A stretch of 64,000 nucleotides of DNA from an uncultured Clostridia bacterium (lineage in GTDB: Bacteria > Bacillota > Clostridia > TANB77 > CAG-508), in contig CALYAK010000001.1 of NCBI GenBank assembly GCA_944393505.1, positions 58,775-122,774 of the forward strand, given 5' to 3'. Position 1 is the stretch's first letter. Every line of letters begins with the position of its first letter. The notes beneath the pieces were generated by a model. It saw only the letters and a program-made list of their open reading frames with translations. It ran no database searches and was not told where the DNA came from. The position numbers and the translations under genes are program-made. This document shows, one piece after another, positions 525-46,834 of this stretch.

Positions 525-2780
525 TTATTGTTCTATCCTTTTTATTTCTAATATATGTCGTTGGATAATCAGTAAGTCTAAAGAAGATGGATTTTTCCCA
601 TTTTTATTAATATTTCCTGCTTTCCAAAAAACACCTTGTAATTTTTGAATTTCTAAAATATGTCTTTGTAAAACTAATAAATCAATACTATTAATTTTTC
701 CATCTCCGTTTACATCTCCATAAAGGATGATTTGATATTCCATTTTAATCATTTCATTTTCATCTATTATTTTAATTGTAGAACCTGTTCCAGCTTTTTC
801 TGTACCTTCTATTTTTTTACCGTTTGAATCATAGATTTCAATACGATAGTTTGTATGAATTTTCTCCATAATTTCTTCTACCGTCATTTTTTTCTCATCC
901 CATCCACTTATCTGGTTTTGTTCAATTTTTAAGCTTGCATCAAAACGGATTTCATCATCACCTAATGGAGTAACTACTACAATCTGTACTTCTTTCTCAA
1001 TCTTCTTTTCTTCCGTTTGAATGATAATTTTTGTATTTCCTTCCTTTATTGTTGTTATTTTTCCTGTTTCGTCCACCTTTGCAATTTTTTCATCTTCAGA
1101 TCGATAGAAAACCCTTTGATTGTCAGCATCTTCTGGTACAACAATCGGTTTTAGAAGAAAGCTCTCTCCTATTGGTAACATTAGATTTTCTATATCAATC
1201 TGTAAGTCTGTTACTGGAGTATAAACTTGCACTTCTATTTGGTCAGAAACTTGATTTGCTTTTGCCTTCACTGTAATCGTAGCTTTTCCAGACTTAACTC
1301 CAAATAAATTCCCACTCTGATCAACTGTTACGATTTTTGGATCACTTGATGTGTACACAATTTCTTGATCTTTGGCTTCTGCCGGTAAAATTTCTACTTT
1401 AATTTTTTGACTTTTTCCTTTTTCTATCTGAGCATGATCGATTGATAATTTAATTTCTTCAATTTGTTGATCAGGAACTTCTTTTAAATAATTTTGAAAT
1501 GCATAACCAATCATTCCATTTGGTAATAGCACACGATCCCATAATTCTCCCGATTGTTTTCCTTTGGCGATTCTCGTCATGATAACATCTCGATTAATCG
1601 TTGTGAGCGATTCATAAGAAGTAGATGGCCCTGTTCTAATGTTTAATGTTGTACTAACATCTGCATACACTTTTGTATTATCTTCTATAAAGTCTTCTTC
1701 TTTTATATTGGGGCTTTGCACTGGAATTTCTGGCATATTTTGATAAACTGGAATGATAAAAGATAAGCTATCATCTAGCATTCCTGTGTTTAAATATCCA
1801 TTGTAGATAGATTTTGATTCACTATATGGAGCCAAAACATTTGTCATATATTGATGCCAAAACAATTCTCCTCCGCTATTACTATTTACATGGAATTTTT
1901 GCAAATAGATGGTATCTTGTCCTAAATGAATATAGCTGGATCCTATAAAAATCCCTCCACCTGTTATTGCCTTTTCTTTATTATTCCATGGAATTAAATA
2001 TTTATCTTTTGTTGCTTGACTAGCTCCGTTTCCATCTCTTGCATAACGAAGGCCATTTTTAATTGCTCCCATTGGTTCTGAAGAACTTGTCGCACCAATA
2101 TTGTAAAAGTTATAAAGCCCTTCGAAACCTTCCACCTTTCCACTGATTGAACTGTGCGATAAGAAAGGACCTACTTCTTGTTTTATACGAGAAGCTAAAT
2201 GATAACTACTTACTAAAGACTGTTTCCCCGCTTTTCCTATTAAATCTGAGTATCGTTCTTTCATAACGATTGAATTTCCTGTACTATCTACGTATTCAAC
2301 AATTTTTTGATAAAACTCTGTTCCATATAAAATCTTTTCAATTCCTGCTATCTGATTTGTTTTTTCTTGATAAGATAATCCTTCAAATTGAAAAATACGA
2401 ACTTCATTTAAAAAATTTCTAGGATCCATTGTATATTCAATCGCTTTTCTAGAGCAATCTACCCATCCAGCATCTACCTCTACATTATATTCTCCTGGAT
2501 TTGTGTTCTTCCATGCATCAGAATAAGATTTCGGAACGAGATTTTTTCCAAATTGATTTTCTTGATCAATTACATATTTCCAATCCAAATTTGTGTATAG
2601 TGCAATAAATTCCCAATTCGGGTGTTTTTGTTGTAACTCCAATAAATAGGGTTGATAATTTGTTGGAAATTGATCTATCCCCTCTTTTCTTTCCGCTGCA
2701 TAACTTTCAACCTGAAAAAAAAGAAGAAAAAAAAAGCAAAAAATATTAAAAAAATAAATTTTTTTATTTTTATATCTCAT
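525..2780 (-). CDS. Large secreted surface protein with Big_2-like repeats and a C-terminal type-I dockerin repeat pair (DVNGDGKINSIDLL / NINKNGKNPSSLDLL); N-terminal putative glycoside-hydrolase/autolysin-like domain
   Basis: 751-aa ORF with N-terminal signal peptide. Two calcium-binding dockerin-like 22-mers at the C-terminus. Multiple Ig-like repeats (ITVKAKANQVSDQIEVQV etc.). Confidence 0.6.
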   Translation of the reverse strand: MRYKNKKIYFFNIFCFFFLLFFQVESYAAERKEGIDQFPTNYQPYLLELQQKHPNWEFIALYTNLDWKYVIDQENQFGKNLVPKSYSDAWKNTNPGEYNVEVDAGWVDCSRKAIEYTMDPRNFLNEVRIFQFEGLSYQEKTNQIAGIEKILYGTEFYQKIVEYVDSTGNSIVMKERYSDLIGKAGKQSLVSSYHLASRIKQEVGPFLSHSSISGKVEGFEGLYNFYNIGATSSSEPMGAIKNGLRYARDGNGASQATKDKYLIPWNNKEKAITGGGIFIGSSYIHLGQDTIYLQKFHVNSNSGGELFWHQYMTNVLAPYSESKSIYNGYLNTGMLDDSLSFIIPVYQNMPEIPVQSPNIKEEDFIEDNTKVYADVSTTLNIRTGPSTSYESLTTINRDVIMTRIAKGKQSGELWDRVLLPNGMIGYAFQNYLKEVPDQQIEEIKLSIDHAQIEKGKSQKIKVEILPAEAKDQEIVYTSSDPKIVTVDQSGNLFGVKSGKATITVKAKANQVSDQIEVQVYTPVTDLQIDIENLMLPIGESFLLKPIVVPEDADNQRVFYRSEDEKIAKVDETGKITTIKEGNTKIIIQTEEKKIEKEVQIVVVTPLGDDEIRFDASLKIEQNQISGWDEKKMTVEEIMEKIHTNYRIEIYDSNGKKIEGTEKAGTGSTIKIIDENEMIKMEYQIILYGDVNGDGKINSIDLLVLQRHILEIQKLQGVFWKAGNINKNGKNPSSLDLLIIQRHILEIKRIEQ

Positions 2781-2797
2781 TTATTATTCTCCTCTAT

Positions 2798-3430
2798 TTA
2801 AGAAATCTTCTGTCTCTCCACTGCTTGTACAATCAATCGGTTCTTCGAATAATTTACACAAGTTATTAAAGTAATCACTCTTTTTCCATTGGTTTCCTGA
2901 TTTAGCGGAGCAATATTTTGAGGTTTTACTTTATAAATATCATAAATCTCATACTCGTATTTTCCGTTTTGAGAATCAATTAAATACAATTCATCTCCAA
3001 TTTCTAAATCAATTAAATGATTAAACATATTTTCTTTATTATAATTATGCCCAGCAATGCAGAAATTCCCAATTTCATTGGGCTCTGGTCCCCAAAATTT
3101 CGCAGCACATAATTTCATTCCTTCTTCTGTATATTCTTTTAAAATATAGGTTTCTAGATTTATTTTCGGTATCATTAATTGCGCATCTACCTCGAATCCC
3201 AAATATTCTTGTGAAATTTGAATTTTTTCAGTTTCTTTTTTTATTTCTTTCTGTGTCGTTTCATCAAGTGTTTTTTCTAATGTTACTTCTGTTCTATTCT
3301 GGTCTTCTTGAAGAAATTGAATTTGATTTTCTTGATAAACCCCAATCCCTACACTTATTAAAATGAGAAAAATTCCTCCAACAAAAATTTTTTTAATTAT
3401 TTTTTCTTTTTTCCCTCTTTCTTTTTTCAT
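2798..3430 (-). CDS. Sortase family transpeptidase
   Basis: 210 aa with N-terminal TM segment. Catalytic TLITC motif near the C-terminus. Adjacent to an LPXTG substrate gene. Confidence 0.8.
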   Translation of the reverse strand: MKKERGKKEKIIKKIFVGGIFLILISVGIGVYQENQIQFLQEDQNRTEVTLEKTLDETTQKEIKKETEKIQISQEYLGFEVDAQLMIPKINLETYILKEYTEEGMKLCAAKFWGPEPNEIGNFCIAGHNYNKENMFNHLIDLEIGDELYLIDSQNGKYEYEIYDIYKVKPQNIAPLNQETNGKRVITLITCVNYSKNRLIVQAVERQKIS

Positions 3431-3498
3431 ATTTTCCTCTTTTATTATTATGTAGTAAGATTTCTTTTAGTTTTTTTATACTAAAAGAAATCTCTTTT

Positions 3499-4581
3499 TT
3501 AATTTTTCTTTTGATAAATGAAATATCCTGCAGTTATTGTTGCAATAAGAATGAAAAGAGAAACGTAAATCGTACTACCTGTTTTCGGTAACGTTGTTGG
3601 CATTTGCTCTATAGTATTTGTTTCTTCTTCCATTGTTAAATTTTCTTCTATCTCTGGTTTTGTTTCTGGAGTTTCCTCTGGTTGTTGTTCTGGTTGTTCT
3701 TCTCCTGGAACTTGTGTATTTCCACCTCCATTGATTACTTCATCTAGTACTGCTATATGAAAAGTTTCGCTTGCGATTTCTGCATCTGAATTATCTCGAT
3801 CAATTAATTTAAATGTAATTTGATAATTTCCTGCACCACTAAATAATCCTCTTATCTTTAATTCTTTTCTAACATCTTTTCCTCCAATTGAATCTCCTTG
3901 TATTTCTCCCCATCCACTTTGAATCATATCATGTTCTAAATCCTGTGAATCTGTTGCTAAAAGTTTTACTGTTTCGTTGTCCGGGGTTACTGCTTCTGCA
4001 ATAATTCGAGTGTGTTCATAGTTTTTTCCCATAGATGAAGAAATAACAAGTTCCATGTCTTTTTCTTCATTTTTTTGAATTTCTCCGGTATAATTTAATT
4101 CTATTTTATAATCTTCATATTGTGGTTCTACGACAATATTCTTTTTAATTGGTGTCGTAATATCATCATAACTGATGGATGCATCTGGTGAGCCTAGTCC
4201 TTCCGCTGTAACACTTAAATCGGTAGGGTTTGATGTTACTATTCCTTCTTTTGCACGAAATACGATATATAAATTGTTGCGCGGATTTGATCCTCCTGTT
4301 TCATCATGGAAAAGAATTTGTACTCTTGTCCCATGGTCTGAAATAATCCCACCTTCTCCAGAGACATATTCTAGCAAATTATTATCATAAGCAATATAAA
4401 AATTATATGCTCCTAAACTTTCTCCAAATTCTATATTAATTTTTATTTCTTCGCCTGGATGTACTGTTTCTTTATCTGTCGAAACATTTATATTTGATAA
4501 AGAAGATGCATATAAATTGATCGAAAAAGAAAATAAAAATAAAACAAGAAAAATAGCGACAATATTTACTATTTTTTTCAT
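3499..4581 (-). CDS. LPXTG cell-wall-anchored surface protein
   Basis: Signal peptide. Pro/Glu/Thr-rich stalk. C-terminal LPKTG followed by a hydrophobic segment and KKN tail. Good SD upstream. Confidence 0.75.
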   Translation of the reverse strand: MKKIVNIVAIFLVLFLFSFSINLYASSLSNINVSTDKETVHPGEEIKINIEFGESLGAYNFYIAYDNNLLEYVSGEGGIISDHGTRVQILFHDETGGSNPRNNLYIVFRAKEGIVTSNPTDLSVTAEGLGSPDASISYDDITTPIKKNIVVEPQYEDYKIELNYTGEIQKNEEKDMELVISSSMGKNYEHTRIIAEAVTPDNETVKLLATDSQDLEHDMIQSGWGEIQGDSIGGKDVRKELKIRGLFSGAGNYQITFKLIDRDNSDAEIASETFHIAVLDEVINGGGNTQVPGEEQPEQQPEETPETKPEIEENLTMEEETNTIEQMPTTLPKTGSTIYVSLFILIATITAGYFIYQKKN

Positions 4582-4785
4582 AAGGTCTTCCTCCTTTTTA
4601 TTTTTTATAGTAAATATTATGTGTATTTTTCTTGTTTTTAAAATAGAAACTTTTAGTTTTTTAGGAATAGTTTTTCAAATCTTTCTTTTTTGGATTTTTT
4701 CGACTATTTTATTTATATTTTTTTATTTTCTTTTTTTATTTTACAAAAAATCGATAAAAATCTATTTCTTCGCATTTCCGTAAAG

Positions 4786-4995
4786 TTTTCCACATAGTTA
4801 TCCACAGGGTCTTTTCTTTTTTATTCGATTTTTCTATTATTTTTTTCTTATTTTTTCTAATTTTTTATTTTATTTTTTTAAAATTAATTTTATCAAAATC
4901 TACTCTTTCTAGGTTTCCCTATTTTTTTGTAAAAATGCATTTTTCTTTTTTTCATTTTCGAATTTCTTTCCACAGTTTTCTTAAAGTTTTCCACA
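4786..4995 (+). promoter_or_regulatory. Cluster of DnaA-box-like 9-mers (TTTTCCACA 4786-4794, perfect TTATCCACA 4798-4806, CTTTCCACA 4967-4975, TTTTCCACA 4987-4995) in the T-rich region upstream of the LPXTG/sortase operon
   Basis: Same-orientation 9-mers matching the box variants used at this genome's own oriC (TGTGGAAAA / TGTGGATAA). The motif AAAGTTTTCCACAG recurs three times. Confidence 0.4.
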
Positions 4996-5071
4996 GTTTC
5001 TTCTTACGGGCACCTATTTTTGACAATTTTTTGTATTTTTTTCATATTTTTGTCATATTTTTGTCTTATTT

Positions 5072-8282: not shown

Positions 8283-8756
8283 ATGGAATTAGTTAAAAAT
8301 ATCTTTTTTAATACAGATAAGTTAGTAGAAAACACCAAAGTAAAAATATCTTACACTGGTGATCTTTTTCAATCAAATTCAGAAGAAGTTTATCTACATT
8401 TCGGTTTTGGAGAAAATTGGGATCAAACAACAGATCTAAAAATGGAAAAAACGGAATTAGGTTTTCAGGCTGAAATTGAATTGATAGAAAGTCCTTTATT
8501 AAATTTCTGTTTTAAAAATGAAAAAAATGAATGGGATAATAATCATAACTTAAATTATGTTTTTCCTATTGAAAAACTAGAGCTTTCTTTAGTTGCTTTA
8601 GACGATAGCGATTCTTTACTACCTACTAGACGTTTAAAGAAATCCTATATTTTTAGTAAAAAATTAAAATTAGCTATTTATAAAATTATTCATTATTTGC
8701 CAAAGTTAATTTCCGGAAATTATAAAAGAAAAATTACAAATTCAGATGAACAATAA
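8283..8756 (+). CDS. Hypothetical cytoplasmic protein (possible beta-sandwich carbohydrate-binding-like domain)
   Basis: 157-aa ORF with strong SD aaggagaaag. No confident family assignment. Confidence 0.35.
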   Translation: MELVKNIFFNTDKLVENTKVKISYTGDLFQSNSEEVYLHFGFGENWDQTTDLKMEKTELGFQAEIELIESPLLNFCFKNEKNEWDNNHNLNYVFPIEKLELSLVALDDSDSLLPTRRLKKSYIFSKKLKLAIYKIIHYLPKLISGNYKRKITNSDEQ

Positions 8757-10498: not shown

Positions 10499-12082
10499 AT
10501 GATCGATTTTGGGATAACAACATTAAACATTGGTGAAGGTTCCCCAATCATCTGGAAAATTATTAAAATTTTTTCTTTTATTATTTCAGTTCTTTCGTCT
10601 TTAATTTTTTCCACTAAAATTGATTCTTACCTTCGCAAAAGGCATATTTCGGATGTTTCTCCCTATTCAAATTCTTCAGTTCCTTCAAAAGATTCTGTTC
10701 TCAATCTTTTCGTTGGAAAAAATATGCAGAATGAACCAATTTATTTATCAGAGAAAAGTTTATATCAAAATATATTGATAACCGGTACAATCGGAACCGG
10801 GAAAACCAGTAGTGCCATGTATCCATTCACGAAGCAACTTATTACTTTTCCTCAAAAAGTTAGTATGCTTATTTTAGATGTAAAGGGCAACTACTATAAA
10901 CAAGTCCAATCCTTTGTTGAAGATGCACATCGAGAAAATGACCTCATTATCTTGGAAGTGGGTGGAAAATATAAATACAACCCCCTTAATAAGCCTCATC
11001 TATCCGCTTCTGTCCTCGCAAACCGATTAAAAACAATTTTGCTACTTTTCTCTGAACAAACCTCAGAAATGTACTGGCTAGATAAAGCGGAACAAGTTTT
11101 AGCTGAGTGCATAAAGCTTTGCAGAATTTATAACGATGGTTATGTTAGTTTTGAAGAAATTCATAAATTAGTAACTCTCCCACACTATTATTTGGATAAA
11201 TTCCCCGTTTTCCGAGATCTTTTAAAACAAAATAAACTTTCTCGCGAAGAGGCCTATAATCTATTGTCTGCAATTCAATTTTTCCAAAATGAATTTTCCC
11301 TTCTTGATGAACGTACAGTTTCTATTCTAAAGTCCGAAATCACTCGAATAACCAATACTTTTTTATCGGATTATTCAGTCCTACAAACGTTTAGCCCTAA
11401 AAAGGAAGAAGAAAATTTAAATAATATGCTAGATATTATAAACTCTGGAAAAATATTAGTCCTCAACATGAATCTTGCAGAATATCGAAATCTATCCAAA
11501 ATAATTGCTGCTTACTTAAAAATGGATTTTCAAACGGATGTCATGCTACGACTTACGTCCCCAACCCCAATTAAACCAGTCGTCTTTATATCCGATGAAT
11601 ATCATGAATATGCCACCGTTTCAGATGCCTCGTTTTTTGCTCAAAGCAGGGAGGCAAAATGTATTAATATTGTTGCAACACAAAGCTATACTTCTTTAAT
11701 TCATTCCTTAAAAAATGATGCTGCTGCAAAAGTAATTCTTCAAAGCTTAACTAATAAATTTTGGTACCGAAATGATGATATGACAACAATCGAATCTGCA
11801 CAAAAACAAATTGGACAAGAAGAAAAAGAAAAAATATCGAAATCTTTCTCTGAAAACGCGAACCAAACTTCTTTCAGTTATTTTTCTAACAGTCTTATTT
11901 CAAAAAACTCATCTATCTCTGAAAGTTTAAATCATTATACACAAAAGGACTTTATTTTCGACAGTAATTTTTTTACTCAAAAGTTAGAAAATTTTTCATG
12001 TATTGCATTTTTGTCAGATGGAGAAAAAATATTACCACCATCTAAACTAAAAATGCTACCATACTTTTCGAAAGGACTCTAA
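10499..12082 (+). CDS. Type IV secretion coupling protein-like ATPase (VirD4/TraG/TraD family), N-terminal TM anchor
   Basis: N-terminal TM helices. Walker A ITGTIGTGKTSS. Walker B-like ISDEYHEY. C-terminal ...AQSREAKCINIVATQSYTSL... resembling the T4CP arginine-finger/Q region. Confidence 0.6.
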   Translation: MIDFGITTLNIGEGSPIIWKIIKIFSFIISVLSSLIFSTKIDSYLRKRHISDVSPYSNSSVPSKDSVLNLFVGKNMQNEPIYLSEKSLYQNILITGTIGTGKTSSAMYPFTKQLITFPQKVSMLILDVKGNYYKQVQSFVEDAHRENDLIILEVGGKYKYNPLNKPHLSASVLANRLKTILLLFSEQTSEMYWLDKAEQVLAECIKLCRIYNDGYVSFEEIHKLVTLPHYYLDKFPVFRDLLKQNKLSREEAYNLLSAIQFFQNEFSLLDERTVSILKSEITRITNTFLSDYSVLQTFSPKKEEENLNNMLDIINSGKILVLNMNLAEYRNLSKIIAAYLKMDFQTDVMLRLTSPTPIKPVVFISDEYHEYATVSDASFFAQSREAKCINIVATQSYTSLIHSLKNDAAAKVILQSLTNKFWYRNDDMTTIESAQKQIGQEEKEKISKSFSENANQTSFSYFSNSLISKNSSISESLNHYTQKDFIFDSNFFTQKLENFSCIAFLSDGEKILPPSKLKMLPYFSKGL

Positions 12083-12083
12083 A

Positions 12084-12428
12084 ATGTTAAAGAAATCTAA
12101 GCACTTTATTTCGAAATATTTCTTTTTAATCATATTTTTTTGTATTTATTTTTTATTTTTATTTTGTGTAACTAGTTTTGCTGCTGATCCAAAGTTAGTT
12201 ACGAAACTAACAAAAGCTTTTGAAAAAATAGAAGATTGGATTATAACATTATCCACTCCTGCAGCAGCAGTTGCTGTTGGTACTGGTGTTTTTATGAAAA
12301 AATTTAGTTTTGGTGATGAAACACGTATTGCAACAGGGAAAAAAATCATTCGAGGTTCTCTTTTTTCCTATGCTTTTATTTTAGCAATTGATTTAATTCT
12401 TTCTGCAATTAAAAGTTTAGTTTCTTAA
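12084..12428 (+). CDS. TrbC/VirB2-like pilin (long signal peptide plus two hydrophobic helices)
   Basis: 114 aa. Signal peptide ending SFA/ADP. Mature region of about 75 aa with two TM helices (STPAAAVAVGTGVFM; LFSYAFILAIDLILSAI). Starts 2 nt after the T4CP stop. Confidence 0.5.
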   Translation: MLKKSKHFISKYFFLIIFFCIYFLFLFCVTSFAADPKLVTKLTKAFEKIEDWIITLSTPAAAVAVGTGVFMKKFSFGDETRIATGKKIIRGSLFSYAFILAIDLILSAIKSLVS

Positions 12429-12434
12429 AAATCT

Positions 12435-13322
12435 ATGGAACAGAACGTCGAATCCATCACACAAACAATTATTGACACAATTAATACTATTTTTTCATCG
12501 ATTTTTTCGTCCATTGATAACTCGATGTATGATACTCTAAATGATTTAGCATTTCTTTCATCTGACATATTAGAAAATTCTTTTTTTCAAAATTTCTTTA
12601 ATTCTTCAAATCATTCTAATATTTTGTTAATTGCAAATTCTTTATTAATTGGATTTTCTCTTTATTACTGCATTCGTTTGCTTTTTTCTTATTTAATTGG
12701 AAATCCTATTGAACACCCCTATTCTTTTTTGTTAAAACTTTTATTGTTTGGAATTTGCATGAATCAGTCACTATTTTTTTGTAAGGAATGTCTTCATTTA
12801 AATTATCTGCTTTCTTCATCCATTCTTGAGTTGGGAGAAAATTTATTAGGAACCTCAATTAATTTTAATCAATTAATTAATCGTTTAAATTCTATTATTT
12901 CCATCGATTCTGATTCCTTAAATGTCTTCTCCTTTGACGGAATTATTCGAAGTTTTATTTCTGTTAGTTTTTTTAATTTAATTTTAAGTTATTCTTTGCG
13001 TTATATTATGGTTCAACTTTTTATACTTATTTGCCCTTTTGCTTTTTTAACATTATTAAATAAAAGTACTTCTAGTTTTTTTTATGCCTGGTTAAGAATT
13101 TTCCTATCACTTTTATTATTACAAGACTTCATTGCTTTTATTTTAGTTCTGTTATTTTCGATTCAAGTTTCGAACCAGGATATTTTGTCAAAACTATATT
13201 GCATTGGTTGTCTTTATGCTTTAATTCGATCCAATCATTATATACAATCTCTTATTGGTGGAATTAATACAAATATTTCTGTTCATGTACAAAACTTTAA
13301 AAATTCATTAAAATCGAATTAG
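12435..13322 (+). CDS. Polytopic membrane protein, VirB6/TrbL-like candidate
   Basis: 295 aa with about 6 predicted TM helices. Position after the pilin gene is typical for VirB6. No sequence-level certainty. Confidence 0.4.
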   Translation: MEQNVESITQTIIDTINTIFSSIFSSIDNSMYDTLNDLAFLSSDILENSFFQNFFNSSNHSNILLIANSLLIGFSLYYCIRLLFSYLIGNPIEHPYSFLLKLLLFGICMNQSLFFCKECLHLNYLLSSSILELGENLLGTSINFNQLINRLNSIISIDSDSLNVFSFDGIIRSFISVSFFNLILSYSLRYIMVQLFILICPFAFLTLLNKSTSSFFYAWLRIFLSLLLLQDFIAFILVLLFSIQVSNQDILSKLYCIGCLYALIRSNHYIQSLIGGINTNISVHVQNFKNSLKSN

Positions 13323-13334
13323 AAAGGAATTTTT

Positions 13335-13660
13335 ATGAAATTTATTTTTCCTCAAAATTATCAATTCCATGGAAAAATATTTGGTTTTCTAGATTACGCA
13401 TCTGCCATACTTTGTCGGTATAATAGGAATTATTTTTTATTTTTTTATCCAATTTTTTAATTTTACATTTTCTTTTAAATTTGCAATTTTCATTATTTTA
13501 TTTCTTCCTATTTTACTATTTTCAATTGTTGGTTTTAATAATGAAAGTTTGGCATATGTGGTATCCTATATTTTTCGTTTTTTTGTTTCTACTAAAATAT
13601 ATTGTTTTAAAAAGTCGAATGATTAATTTGTTTCTGTTTTCTTGTAAAAGGAAGAATTAA
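13335..13660 (+). pseudogene. Frameshifted small two-TM membrane protein, PrgI/TcpE (VirB3-like) candidate
   Basis: ATG at 13335 gives MKFIFPQNYQFHGKIFGFLDYASAILCRYNRN, then stops at 13458. The +2 frame continues with two hydrophobic helices to TAA at 13658. The frame switch falls in the T6/T7 runs at 13433-13446. Confidence 0.35.
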
Positions 13661-13709
13661 ATGGTATAATTTTTCATAGCATATTCTTTATTTTGAAAGG
13701 AGATCTCCT

Positions 13710-14684
13710 ATGAGACTAGAACAAAATGATCGATCATTTTTATTTTCTACAACAGAATTACCTGATATATTTTTTACGGAATATTTGTCTCAGTCATCAG
13801 GAGATCAAATCAAGATTTATTTATATATCCTTTTTCTTTCGAAATATGGAAAAGATATTCGTTTGAATGATTTATCCAAAAAATTGAATTTACCTTTAAA
13901 GGTAATTCAAGATTCTATCAAATATTGGGAAGATCTTGGCTTAATTACGAAAAAAAATACTGGATATATTGTCAATAGTTTGCAAGAAATTGAATTACAC
14001 AAATTATATCATCCTAAAACAGCTCTATCTTCTGAGGATCTTTTGAAAAACACAAAAAATAAATACCGTGCAAATGCAATTGAAAATATTAACAATGTCT
14101 TTTTTCAAGGGGTTATGTCTCCCTCTTGGTATAGCGATATTGATCTATGGTTTCGTAAATACAATTTCGATGAAGAGGTTATGATTGCTCTATTCCAATA
14201 TTGCTTTGATCGTTCTGCTCTGCATCATAACTATATTGAAACCGTTGCAAGTGCATGGGCAAAAAATCATATCAAAACTTTTGCTGATCTAGATAAATAC
14301 TATGAAAAACAGGAAAAAATAAGTAGTATTGCAAAAACAATTAGTAAGAAATTAGGATTTTCTCGTCAACTTTCACAGTATGAGCAAGCTTATATCGAAA
14401 AATGGCTTGTTGATTATGGCTATTCACTTGATATTATTGAAATCGCTTTAAAGAAAACAACTTCTAAAGCAAATCCTAATTTCGATTATATCGATCGCCT
14501 ATTATCGGATTGGCATGAACATAATTTAAAAACATCTGAAGAGGTTCAAAAATATTTAGCCGATATGAAACAAAAAACAAAAGATGTCGAAAACTTAAAA
14601 AAGAATGCAAATTCTTCTAATTTTAATAACTATTCGCAACGTCCATATGATAATTTAGACAATTTGTATGCAAATAAAAAATAG
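13710..14684 (+). CDS. DnaD-domain replication initiation/membrane attachment protein (B. subtilis DnaB/DnaD-like primosome component)
   Basis: 324 aa. Winged-helix N-terminus and DnaD-like repeats (YIEKWLVDYGYSLDIIEIALKK). Followed by dnaI as in the Firmicute dnaB-dnaI arrangement. Confidence 0.7.
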   Translation: MRLEQNDRSFLFSTTELPDIFFTEYLSQSSGDQIKIYLYILFLSKYGKDIRLNDLSKKLNLPLKVIQDSIKYWEDLGLITKKNTGYIVNSLQEIELHKLYHPKTALSSEDLLKNTKNKYRANAIENINNVFFQGVMSPSWYSDIDLWFRKYNFDEEVMIALFQYCFDRSALHHNYIETVASAWAKNHIKTFADLDKYYEKQEKISSIAKTISKKLGFSRQLSQYEQAYIEKWLVDYGYSLDIIEIALKKTTSKANPNFDYIDRLLSDWHEHNLKTSEEVQKYLADMKQKTKDVENLKKNANSSNFNNYSQRPYDNLDNLYANKK

Positions 14685-14700
14685 GTTAAGGTGAGTAATT

Positions 14701-15708
14701 TTGGCAAATACGAATTTAAAACAATTATTAACTGAATATGAAAAAAAAAGATATGAAGCTCTTCGTTCTGCTGAAGAGAGGAAAGAGTCTCTTTATTTCC
14801 GAATTCCAAGATTAAAGGAAATTGATTCAGAAATTAGTTTATTAACAATTCGAACCGCAAAGGATTTGTTAAAACAAAAAAATGATATTTTATTAAAAAA
14901 GTTAAATCATGAGCTTACTGTTTTAAGACAGGAAAAAGAAAAAATTTTAAAAGAAAATCATATTGAGAAAAAAGAACTTGAACCTCAGTTTGAGTGTAAC
15001 CTATGTCAAGACACTGGTTATATAACCGATTCTAATTTTAACTCAATTATGTGTAATTGTTTAAAACAACGCCTTTTTGATTTAGAATATAATAAAAGTA
15101 ATGTTTACAATCTTTCTCAACAAACTTTTCAAAATTTTAACTTTCATTATTATTCTCAAGAGATTAATTCAGAAAAATATCACTCAGATTTATCCCCTCA
15201 AGAGAATATTAAGTTAATTTACGATATTTGTATGAATTTTTTAGAAAATTTTGATGATCCTAACGAAAAAAATTTACTTTTTACTGGAAATACTGGCCTA
15301 GGAAAAACCTTTCTTTCTAGTTGTATTGCAAATGAATTATTAAAAAAGGGAAAAACGGTTCTTTATCAAACTGCCCCTGTTATGTTAGATGAAATTATTA
15401 ATTATCGTTTTTCAAAAGGAACTAGTTCTACCAACGATTTATATGATCATTTATTAAATGTCGATTTATTAATTATTGATGATCTAGGAACTGAATGCAT
15501 GAATCAAATGAAATTTACCGAACTTTTTAATGTTATTAATACGCGATTATTAAATCAAAATCAAAAATCAATTAAAACAATTATCTCAACCAACTTGAGC
15601 CTTCAAAATTTATATTCAAATTATGACGAAAGAATCGTTTCAAGAATCGTTGGTTATTATAATATTTGTTATTTTTTCGGAGAAGATATTCGATTTAAGA
15701 TTCGTTAA
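14701..15708 (+). CDS. dnaI: Helicase loader DnaI/DnaC-like AAA+ ATPase with N-terminal zinc-binding domain
   Basis: 335 aa. N-terminal CNLCQDTGYI...CNC. Walker A TGNTGLGKTFL. Walker B LLIIDDLG. Confidence 0.75.
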   Translation: MANTNLKQLLTEYEKKRYEALRSAEERKESLYFRIPRLKEIDSEISLLTIRTAKDLLKQKNDILLKKLNHELTVLRQEKEKILKENHIEKKELEPQFECNLCQDTGYITDSNFNSIMCNCLKQRLFDLEYNKSNVYNLSQQTFQNFNFHYYSQEINSEKYHSDLSPQENIKLIYDICMNFLENFDDPNEKNLLFTGNTGLGKTFLSSCIANELLKKGKTVLYQTAPVMLDEIINYRFSKGTSSTNDLYDHLLNVDLLIIDDLGTECMNQMKFTELFNVINTRLLNQNQKSIKTIISTNLSLQNLYSNYDERIVSRIVGYYNICYFFGEDIRFKIR

Positions 15709-19088: not shown

Positions 19089-20189
19089 TTATTGATATTT
19101 CAATTTTTCTGTCCAATTTCCCTCACTCATTCTTTCAGGAAATTTAATTCTTTTGATGATCTTTTGATATTCTTTCCATTCTTGAAAACCACCAAAATGT
19201 TTTCGATATCGAAAATTCATATTTTGAGCATAATTTTTTGTATCTCTTAGGATTCCTAGAATAGAAAAATCTCGAAAATTTTTAATTAAATTAATTCTTG
19301 TTAAACTATATTTTGAGAAGCGATTAAATAATATTTTCGTTTTTTTCCAATCAATTAATCCTTCATTTTTGATAAAAAAATCAATTCCCTTTAAATTCCC
19401 GGAAAAAGAAGATTCTACAACAAAAATCGTTAAATCGGAAACTCTTGATAATTCAGAATTAATTTTTAAAGGATCTTCTGTATTTGTATCAATTAATATA
19501 AAATCATATTTTTGTTTGAGACTTTCAATTTTTACTTCAAAATTTTGAATGATTTCTTCCCCATCACAGATATAAATTCTTTTATTAATCTTTCTTTCAA
19601 ATTCTTCTTTTTGCTCCTTCTGAGTAATCTTTAATAAAACCTTTCTTTCATAATCCATATCAATCATTAGTATTTTTTGAAAAGTTAGCATTTGTGCCAT
19701 CATAAAGCAAATACTCGTCTTTCCAGCACTATGGTCCCCCACAAATGCAATTACACTTGCATATCTTCTCTTTTCTTTTTTTATTTGTTTTATTTCTTCC
19801 TTTAAGCTCTCGATTTCTTTCTTTAATTCCTTATCTCCTTCTGCTTTTTTTTCTAATAACTCTTTTTTTATTATTTTTTCGTAATAAATTGCCTCTTCTA
19901 TTTTTTGATGCATTAATAATTTATTTTTTATTTGATTTTCTTTTGAATAAATTAAAATTATTTTTAAATCTTTTTTTCGTTTTTTTATTTTTTCGATTAT
20001 TTCTTCTAGTGAAAAAGGACCTTCTAAAAAATCACTCATTATTAAGTATTCAATTTCGATATTTTGATCAAAAAGCTCAAAAATTCCTTCTTGATATTGA
20101 ATATCTTTTCCTAAAATTTCACATTCTAATTTCTCTTTTAAACAATTATAAATTTGTTCATTTCCAATCGCTGTTACTATCTTCTTCAA
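19089..20189 (-). CDS. ParA/MinD-superfamily ATPase with N-terminal receiver-like domain and coiled-coil linker (CpaE/TadZ-like architecture)
   Basis: 366 aa. N-terminal about 100 aa REC-like (IEYLIMSD). K/E-rich coiled coil. Deviant Walker A AFVGDHSAGKTS and downstream ILIDTN Walker B-like. Overlaps the VirB4-like stop by 32 nt. Confidence 0.5.
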   Translation of the reverse strand: MKKIVTAIGNEQIYNCLKEKLECEILGKDIQYQEGIFELFDQNIEIEYLIMSDFLEGPFSLEEIIEKIKKRKKDLKIILIYSKENQIKNKLLMHQKIEEAIYYEKIIKKELLEKKAEGDKELKKEIESLKEEIKQIKKEKRRYASVIAFVGDHSAGKTSICFMMAQMLTFQKILMIDMDYERKVLLKITQKEQKEEFERKINKRIYICDGEEIIQNFEVKIESLKQKYDFILIDTNTEDPLKINSELSRVSDLTIFVVESSFSGNLKGIDFFIKNEGLIDWKKTKILFNRFSKYSLTRINLIKNFRDFSILGILRDTKNYAQNMNFRYRKHFGGFQEWKEYQKIIKRIKFPERMSEGNWTEKLKYQ

Positions 20190-45271: not shown

Positions 45272-46834
45272 TAATTTAAAAAATAAAATATTAAATTAAA
45301 TATTAAAAATAAAACATTAAAATTAAATAAATAACAAAAAATTGGAATATAGAAAATTAAAATAAAAAATAATGAAAAAATAAAAAAGAAATAATGAAAA
45401 ATAAAACAAACTGTATTAAAATAAAAAATAAATTAGAATTAAAAATAAAAAAATATTTGATTAAAAATAAAAAATCAATAATAATCCATTTAAAAAAGGA
45501 AAAAGATAGGATCAAAAAAAGTAACAGAATTAGAAGAAACAGGGTTACATAAGACCAAAAAAATAAAAGAAAAGTCAAATAGAAAAAAGAGAGTAAAAGG
45601 ATAAAGAAAGATAGCCTCAAAACAAAAAAACAAAGGAAAAAGTTGGAAAAAAGAAAAGATAAAAAAATAGGGATAAAAATAGGGATTTCTAAGGTTGAGG
45701 GACTTAATAATCAAAAGAAAAAGAGAGAAGAAAGAGAAAGACTGGTTAGCCAAAAAGTATCAAAAGAAAAGACAGTTTGACAAAAAAACAAGAGAAAAAC
45801 AAACTAAAGAATAGCAACAAGAGAAAACAGAAAAAGCTTAGGCTACTTATCGGAAAAATATGGAAAGATAAAAAAGAGAGAAAAATTAAAACAAAAAGAA
45901 ATAAAATAAATTAAAAAAATAAAATAATCTCTTTGATAAAAAATAAAAGTCCAATAAAATAAAAATAATAAATAATAAAACGGAATAAAATTTTAAAAAA
46001 TAAAAAATAGAAAAAAGAAATGATTCAAAAAAGAAATTAATTAAAATAAATGAGCAAAAATTTAAATAAAAAAGAAATAAAAAAATAATTATTAAAAAAT
46101 AAATAATAAAAAATGGATAGAAAAATAGATAGAAAAATAAAAACTAATTAATCGAAAAAAGATAAGTTATAAAGATTTACATAAAAAACAAAGAATAGAA
46201 AGAAAAATTATTAAGGTGTAATTCAACTTTTTTATCATAAAAAGGAAAGATTTAAGAAGGAAGAAAAAAGAGCTTTCTTCTTTTTCTTTATAGAGAGAAA
46301 GAAAAAGAAGAAAAGATCAATTTTAAAGAAAAAGGTAATCGAGAAAAAGTAAAAAATTGCTAGGGAAAACTGGGGAGGAGAACGAATTAAAAATGGATTA
46401 TGAAAAGAGAAAGAGGTAAGTCTTAGAAAAAGAAAAGTTTAAAAAAATGGACTAGAACATCAAAAAGACAACCAAAAACAGAACAAGAAAAGATCCAAAA
46501 ATTACCAATAGAAAAAGAAAGAAAAATAAGAAAACATAGTATACATAAAAACAAAAAAGTAAAAGAGAAAATCTTTTACTTTTTTATTATTTTATAAATT
46601 TTATGTGCTTTTAAAAAACAGGAAAAGCGATTTAAAAAACATTCTACTTCAAATAAAGAATTTAATAATTGATTTTTTTTATTTCCAATATTATTGGAGG
46701 AAATTATTTCGAAATTTTTTGGTCGATTACAATTCATAAAATCACCTACTTATTGTAAGAATTGAAAAGAGAGGAAAAATACGATATAATATAATATATG
46801 TAAAATAAAGAGAAAAGTTAAAAAGGATCTAAAT
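45272..46834 (+). repeat. About 1.56-kb gene-free, extremely A-rich polypurine (A/G on the plus strand) low-complexity tract
   Basis: No ORF of 60 aa or more on the plus strand. Minus-strand ORFs are Phe/Leu homopolymer artefacts. AAAATAAA-type motifs dominate and the strand purine bias is strong. Confidence 0.8.
46763..46791 (+). promoter_or_regulatory. Sigma-A-type promoter TTGAAA-17-TATAAT upstream of the methyltransferase-rsmI operon
   Basis: TTGAAA 46763-46768, TATAAT 46786-46791. Confidence 0.4.

Follow-up and report, generated by a model that had tools for sequence, protein, structure and literature searches.

What is the function of a group of DnaA boxes that lies well away from the replication origin, in the non-coding spacer in front of a surface-protein operon? 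The control of replication initiation is well described in only a few model bacteria. To our knowledge, Clostridia lack Hda, SeqA and IHF, and their control loci are essentially uncharted. The window considered here is a 64-kb stretch of DNA from an uncultured gut Clostridia bacterium, in which an earlier note had pointed to four same-strand DnaA boxes within 210 bp, about 24 kb from oriC, and had proposed either a DnaA titration or regulatory site or DnaA-dependent control of the LPXTG/sortase operon downstream. All four boxes are present, with positions and sequences exactly as claimed (Table 1). They lie in a spacer of 490 bp (4582-5071) that is 79% A+T and strongly strand-skewed, and the gene that follows it does encode an LPKTG sorting signal, with a sortase gene next in line. 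The thrice-repeated motif in which the boxes were said to be embedded was recovered in part: three copies of the 14-mer AAAGTTTTCCACAG can be recognized, of which one is exact (4983-4996) and the others carry 1 and 2 mismatches.

Table 1. Positions in the window of the boxes, the element that contains them, the adjoining genes and the origin region.
Feature	Position	Strand	Remarks
Cohesin-domain LPKTG surface protein gene	3499-4581	-	First gene of operon; downstream of the element in 2/4 species only
Whole non-coding element, 326 bp	4745-5070	- (flanking-gene strand)	From HDIG stop codon to block GATTTTTT; four-species nhmmer profile
Blocks GATTTTTA..GATTTTTT	4745-4762	-	Right arm of imperfect terminal inverted repeat; invariant in 4 species
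25-mer TGTGGAAAACTTTACGGAAATGCGA	4770-4794	-	Invariant in 4 species; box B2 plus 16 nt outside the DnaA consensus
Box B2, TTTTCCACA	4786-4794	+	12 bp from B1; inside the 25-nt invariant block
Box B1, perfect TTATCCACA	4798-4806	+	CCTGTGGA invariant; TTTTCCACA at B1 in the other 3 species
A-rich spacer between box groups	4807-4965	-	Phased A-tracts, repeat 10.5-11 bp; sequence diverged between species
Semi-conserved central block CCTAGAAAGAGTAGATTTT	4895-4913	-	Within the A-rich spacer
Box A2, CTTTCCACA	4966-4974	+	21 bp from A1; TGTGGAA invariant
Box A1, TTTTCCACA	4987-4995	+	TGTGGAAAA on the gene strand; 77 bp past the HDIG gene; TGTGGAAAACT invariant in 4 species
Block TGTCAAAAATAG-RTG-YCCGTAAG	5003-5025	-	Upstream of group A; left arm of inverted repeat
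CCGTAAG	5003-5009	-	Invariant in 4 species
TGTCAAAAATAG	5014-5025	-	Invariant in 4 species
ATGACAAAAA	5047-5056	-	Invariant; just past the HDIG stop codon
HDIG/HD-domain gene, 188 aa	5072-5638	-	Precedes the element in 4/4 species
recF	26255-27340		After dnaN
dnaN	27377-28501		
dnaA-dnaN spacer	28502-28819		
rpmH-rnpA-yidC-jag-mnmE-mnmG	from 30526, rightwards		

Such a density of boxes is not a general property of the DNA in which they lie. The perfect 9-mer occurs 4 times in the 64-kb window against 0.60 expected, and TWTCCACA 20 times against 4.8. Matches to the [TC]T[AT]TCCACA family number 14 in the window, 10 of them in the oriC region (27333-30266, from the dnaN-recF spacer to upstream of dnaA) and 4 in the cluster. 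The earlier note had named similar box density in other T-rich intergenic DNA as a counter-indication, and none was found in the window: outside oriC it has 17 further intergenic regions of 150 bp or more, several of them equally T-rich or A-rich, and none contains a box. By hand calculation, about 0.01 boxes would be expected in 490 bp at the local composition, against 4 seen. In 426 kb of low-GC Clostridia DNA from non-syntenic relatives the background rate was 0.049 boxes per kb, without a single cluster of at least three boxes within 250 bp; the probability of four or more boxes in 210 bp is then 4.7e-10, or 1.4e-7 when corrected for all windows of that size. Within the 64-kb window and the loci of relatives compared with it, the cluster is statistically exceptional, and it is built from the same 9-mers as the organism's own origin. 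The non-coding DNA of the window also includes a 1.56-kb stretch (45272-46834) with no ORF of at least 100 aa, 81% A+T (58% A) and no Rfam match at the gathering threshold.

The origin itself is readily located. The dnaA gene (28820-30184, - strand) is a TIGR00362 equivalog match at 570 bits, and the product has a canonical domain IV in which PRQ, LPxIG and RDHTTV are retained, the motifs seen in the E. coli structure 1J1V with its bound box. Gene order, boxes in the spacer and a change of sign of the GC skew at about 28 kb place oriC at the dnaA-dnaN spacer, which puts the cluster 23.6 kb away on the left replichore, close to the 24 kb first estimated. The oriC core reads (TAG)6-GTCC-TGTGGATAA-TGTGGAAAA at 28533-28572, with four more copies of TTTTCCACA in the spacer. 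It is organized as a basal unwinding system, tandem boxes plus DnaA-trios (PMC8287927), and is bordered on the left by AT-rich DNA. Its six trios (28533-28550) are kept as perfect trios in three species (that of the window, L113 and L115). The variants TTTTCCACA and TTATCCACA dominate the dnaA-dnaN spacer, and both occur in the cluster. Elsewhere in the origin region, a perfect palindrome, TTATCCACATGTGGATAA, lies upstream of dnaA (30249-30266), and an inverted box pair, TTTTCCACA-N14-TGTGGAAAA, lies between dnaN and recF (27333-27364). The pair is kept in L113 (1309-1340), not as such in L115, and might serve as a recF promoter under DnaA control or belong to the origin region as its third part.

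Conservation of the cluster in related genomes, the other check proposed with it, was found as well: it is present in three further species, directly after the HDIG gene. Relatives were found by anchoring on the neighbouring VanW and HDIG proteins, and the comparison set consists of four related species including that of the window. VanW and HDIG are, respectively, 78% and 88% identical to those of the window in L101/L102, and 78% and 85% in L103-L105 and L107; in L111, HDIG is 86% identical. Neither the HDIG gene nor the cluster is present in L106, a more distant relative whose VanW is 64% identical. The contigs of P0242 and P0123 end inside the HDIG gene and were excluded. In the HDIG gene, identity at four-fold degenerate sites is only 38-57% for the species pairs comparable in frame, so that neutral sequence is near saturation. 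Over the four species, invariant columns make up 33 of 36 in the boxes versus 161 of 299 in the rest (Fisher p = 4e-6), the latter figure being inflated by A-richness. All boxes share one orientation and fall into two groups in 4/4 species. The spacing, also kept, is 21-22 bp in group A and 12 bp in group B, and 176-191 bp separate the two groups. L103 and L111 carry an additional box, GGTGGATAA, between A1 and A2, plus one downstream of group B. Box sequence, group number, orientation and spacing are under purifying selection, the evidence from spacing and periodicity being non-independent since the four species are related.

Several further searches looked at the distribution of the element. 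The species of the window is common in animal-gut metagenomes, and the spacer is nearly invariant among its contigs; such near-identical sequences are uninformative on selection. The 20-mer GGAAAACTTTACGGAAATGC, scanned against metagenome contigs, turned up one further strain (L107) and two chance matches within coding sequence. When the HDIG protein was used as an anchor in GTDB genomes, at least 80 loci were obtained, 60-76% identical and non-syntenic, with no boxes downstream among the matches listed; they were used solely as background. Altogether, one genus-level group of gut Clostridia keeps the element as a single orthologous unit 24 kb from oriC. The synteny from gyrA to the element is retained in L101, so the oriC-proximal position is probably kept there too.

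Two features of the surroundings deserve mention in their own right. Close to oriC, between the element, gyrA and gyrB, lie genes (10499-15708 and 20158-22035) for a TrwB-like/TraG P-loop protein resembling T4SS coupling proteins, a DnaD/DnaB_2-like protein and a DnaI/IstB-like protein, and the block at 10.5-15.7 kb is 80-87% conserved in L101. These TrwB-, DnaD- and DnaI-like genes could be what is left of an integrated conjugative element, or they could serve the cell itself in helicase loading. Homologues of the 188-aa HDIG protein, 68-73% identical, occur both in MAGs labelled Elusimicrobia and in many Clostridia (loci L018, L021, L026, L027, L034 and others), with no shared neighbourhood, a distribution that suggests horizontal spread or mis-binning.

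The element in which the boxes are set has defined boundaries and more than boxes in it. Searched with a profile built from the four species, each locus yields one copy, and the rest of the 1.34 Mb of sequence covered yields none. The spacer had been called otherwise featureless, a description that does not hold, as several further blocks are invariant across species. At its two ends the element carries the arms of an imperfect inverted repeat, about 40 nt in length. One of the blocks begins with TGTCAAAAA (the first nine bases of TGTCAAAAATAG), which is in the orientation of the boxes, has one mismatch (position 6) to TTWTNCACA and may be a weak DnaA box. The invariant non-box blocks ACTTTACGGAAATGCGA, CCGTAAG, ATGACAAAAA and GATTTTTT indicate that DnaA titration alone does not explain the conservation. 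In the elements of 4/4 species the strongest periodicity of AA dinucleotides falls at 10.5-11.25 bp, a strength reached by 0.3-4% of dinucleotide-preserving shuffles, and the element exceeds every other intergenic region of the window in this respect. Helically phased A-tracts of this kind suggest intrinsic curvature of the spacer, although homology among the four sequences makes the periodicity suggestive rather than independent evidence. A YCCGTAA(A)G motif occurs near boxes at 28733-28741 (in the dnaA-dnaN spacer, kept in 3 species) and at 4776-4784 and 5003-5010 (the ends of the element, in 4 species). As a co-factor site, TTACGGAA or YCCGTAMR was set aside: its enrichment is weak (4 versus an expectation of 1.9), and the choice of pattern was post hoc.

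The link to the surface operon, the other role first proposed, was weakened by the comparison. The operon runs cohesin, sortase, dockerin/Big_2 protein, cadherin-like protein, and it follows the element in the window and in L101; in L103 and L111, the next gene is an unrelated HTH/DUF4825 gene, and alignments between species pairs break down right after GATTTTTT at 4745. Cohesin-sortase operons of other relatives (L095-L100; cohesin 58-69% identical) have different genes upstream and no boxes in their 180-230 bp upstream regions, and they share with the window only a proximal leader of about 100 bp. The boxes of the window lie outside this common leader, 205-414 bp upstream of the ATG. The element thus stays with HDIG while the next gene changes, and other cohesin operons are box-free, which makes dedicated control of the surface operon unlikely. 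It is autonomous and inherited with the HDIG side, and it is not part of the conserved control region of the surface operon.

The operon is of some interest in itself. The two segments 525-4581 and 8283-8756 encode the sortase-anchored LPKTG cohesin, dockerin/Big_2/SH3 and cadherin-like proteins and, nearby, a CBM53 starch-binding protein, and these domains suggest a small cell-surface cohesin-dockerin system of amylosome-like type. Related uncultured gut Clostridia commonly carry the operon (1220 homologues at E<=1e-5). In the leader shared with the other cohesin operons, the 5' UTR pairs with codons 4-14 of the signal peptide (4541-4638, - strand) in a stem of about 31 bp whose loop holds the RBS and ATG; the stem is kept in five species, with compensatory double changes at four pairs, and may be an mRNA 5' stabilizer or a translation-control hairpin.

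Among the other accounts of the locus, the one in which DnaA acts here mainly as a transcription factor has the most to be said for it and is nevertheless doubtful. The target could be the downstream operon (in L103 and L111 the HTH/DUF4825 gene), read-through from VanW-HDIG, which bound DnaA would roadblock, or an antisense promoter at TTGACA (5020-5025). Most B. subtilis DBCs (DnaA-box clusters) also regulate adjacent genes, among them sda, ywlC, yydA and dnaA (PMC3245932, PMC4447404). No intrinsic terminator is predicted between HDIG and the next gene in 4/4 species, so bound DnaA could limit read-through, and the + strand TTGACA is invariant, followed by CATATT at 17-nt spacing in the window and by TATTCT at 16-nt spacing in L111. 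However, L101 and L103 do not keep this antisense -10, and neither a promoter-like nor a terminator-like site common to all four species was predicted, which makes a conserved sigma-70 promoter or a terminator an unlikely identity of the element. The element also remains unchanged while the downstream gene differs between species, the cohesin operons of other relatives share the proximal leader yet are box-free, and the boxes stand far from the ATG, at the distance given above. Neither a conserved small ORF nor a structured RNA is present in the element: of two candidates for an sda-like gene, the window has an ATG frame of 20 codons and L101 a 35-aa call, and neither is conserved.

The remaining accounts are less probable. 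It is very unlikely that the locus is primarily the site of a different DNA-binding factor on the non-box blocks, or a domesticated mobile-element remnant with terminal inverted repeats, with the DnaA-like 9-mers secondary. The 16 nt past box B2, CCGTAAG, ATGACAAAAA and GATTTTTT are invariant and not box-like, the ends do form an inverted repeat, and a YCCGTAAG-like motif recurs in the dnaA-dnaN spacer of three species; against this, the 9-mers are the best-conserved columns and identical to origin boxes, and the enrichment of TTACGGAA is as slight as noted above. A MITE, plasmid or phage origin was rejected, as each locus has a single copy and searches of plasmid and phage collections gave no match. 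An origin-like unwinding module, whether a second basal unwinding system, a relic of one or a partly duplicated oriC, in which DnaA would load from the tandem boxes of group B onto the adjacent A-rich strand, is highly improbable. Group B copies the oriC core G(A/T)CC-TGTGGATAA-(0-3 nt)-TGTGGAAAA, its A-rich strand lies on the side that the TAG trios occupy in oriC, and inspection of the alignment finds the search pattern of PMC8287927 in 3/4 species. The NAN part of that pattern is trivial in DNA with 50-60% A, however, and fails in L103; the six perfect TAG trios of oriC, kept in three species, are absent from the element, neither dnaA nor dnaN is adjacent, the GC skew switches only at about 28 kb, and an A-rich sense strand is general in the intergenic DNA of this genome. 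Hardly credible, finally, is that the boxes arose by chance in T-rich low-complexity DNA or that the locus is a non-coding RNA gene. The A+T content and strand skew of the spacer are what could favour it, but the boxes far exceed the number expected at that composition, are missing from the other intergenic regions of the window outside oriC and are kept in four species, and neither an Rfam match at E<=1 nor a fold signal on either strand (z = -1.0 and -0.4) was obtained for the element. Background counts, fold tests and conservation effectively refute this reading.

By analogy with known loci, the four boxes are best read as an oriC-proximal DnaA-binding cluster of the B. subtilis DBC or E. 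coli datA kind, with a probability of about 0.6. Conservation in four species makes the element a real member of the known class of secondary DnaA-binding loci. What stands of the first description is a genuine, conserved secondary cluster made of the origin's box variants, for which a titration or regulatory role, drawn from analogy, fits best; control of the surface operon is weakened. In the mechanism that can be proposed, DnaA would occupy the two box groups cooperatively, and the phased A-tract spacer probably curves the DNA and so brings the groups together. The locus would then hold or modulate DnaA near the origin and damp re-initiation, in a way comparable to DBCs or datA, with effects on neighbouring transcription as a possible by-product. 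The invariant blocks outside the boxes leave room for a co-factor. A more ambitious version appears unlikely: the element would be a dedicated, architecturally fixed DnaA-control locus of Clostridia, an analogue of datA/DARS rather than a passive sink, in which A-tract curvature replaces IHF, a second factor binds the invariant ACTTTACGGAAATGCGA/YCCGTAAG motif (also present in the dnaA-dnaN spacer) and the complex changes the oligomeric or nucleotide state of DnaA.

The element is useful in several ways. As a compact, conserved unit with defined boundaries, it is a good in vitro substrate for recombinant DnaA, and it can serve as a marker for annotating secondary DnaA sites in metagenome-assembled genomes. 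It also carries a rule for annotation: assigning a box cluster to whichever gene follows it can be misleading, and a comparison of synteny settles the question. Replication and transcription roles coexist in B. subtilis.

Comparison with known systems starts with datA of E. coli, which like the element is non-coding, near oriC and equipped with a handful of boxes, those of datA being of high affinity. At datA, DNA bending between boxes is needed for the DnaA complex that restrains initiation (PMC5295017, PMC5742627). datA depends on an IHF site between its essential boxes and promotes DnaA-ATP hydrolysis (DDAH), whereas the element lacks a conserved IHF-like site: the only candidate in it, TATCGATTTTTTG (one mismatch), is situated apart from both box groups and has not been kept in L103 or L111. 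As far as we know, Firmicutes are generally without IHF. The phasing of the A-tracts raises the possibility that their curvature could substitute for it. No sequence relationship between the element and datA was seen. The basal unwinding system is sought by two boxes no more than 3 bp apart, followed after about 4 bp by (NAN) repeated at least three times (PMC8287927). Group B, as TGTGGATAA-CTA-TGTGGAAAA, resembles it in how closely its boxes follow each other (within 3 bp), in the CC before them and in their polarity towards the A-rich strand, and differs from it in having no TAG (3'-GAT-5') trios, no dnaA/dnaN neighbour and no GC-skew switch; a second unwinding module was rejected as its identity. 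In the account given in PMC3245932, oriC-proximal DnaA-box clusters of Streptomyces coelicolor take part in replication control, and such loci are common in Gram-positives. The S. coelicolor clusters are likened to the element by description, in a different phylum and a different box context.

Bacillus subtilis DBCs generally carry larger arrays than the four strong boxes of the window. Six of them lie outside oriC, mostly near it; their joint deletion leads to early initiation, and they work best near oriC (PMC3245932). DnaA binds at B. subtilis DBCs in vitro (PMC4447404), and their role in replication has been judged modest (PMC5295017), which, like the small number of strong boxes, counts against the reading favoured here. 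Near oriC, DBCs are usual in Firmicutes and Actinobacteria, beside different genes in each species (Okumura et al., PMC3245932). The element resembles them as an intergenic box cluster outside oriC and near the origin of a Firmicute, with neighbours that vary between species (PMC3245932), and it shows clustering far above background, origin-type boxes and proximity to oriC. The same regulated gene across species, as at promoters of the sda/ywlC/dnaA type, was not found beside it, and the thdF-jag DBC of B. subtilis has no counterpart in the window, the corresponding position (32836-33254) being free of boxes. The element differs from the B. subtilis clusters in having fewer strong boxes (four to six), arranged in two discrete groups of one orientation with a phased A-tract spacer between them, in its extra invariant non-box blocks, and in being one orthologous element on the same upstream gene in four species. 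It therefore fits the known description of a DBC and is slightly unusual in that the whole unit, with its groups, spacing, orientation, phased spacer and flanking blocks, is kept across species.
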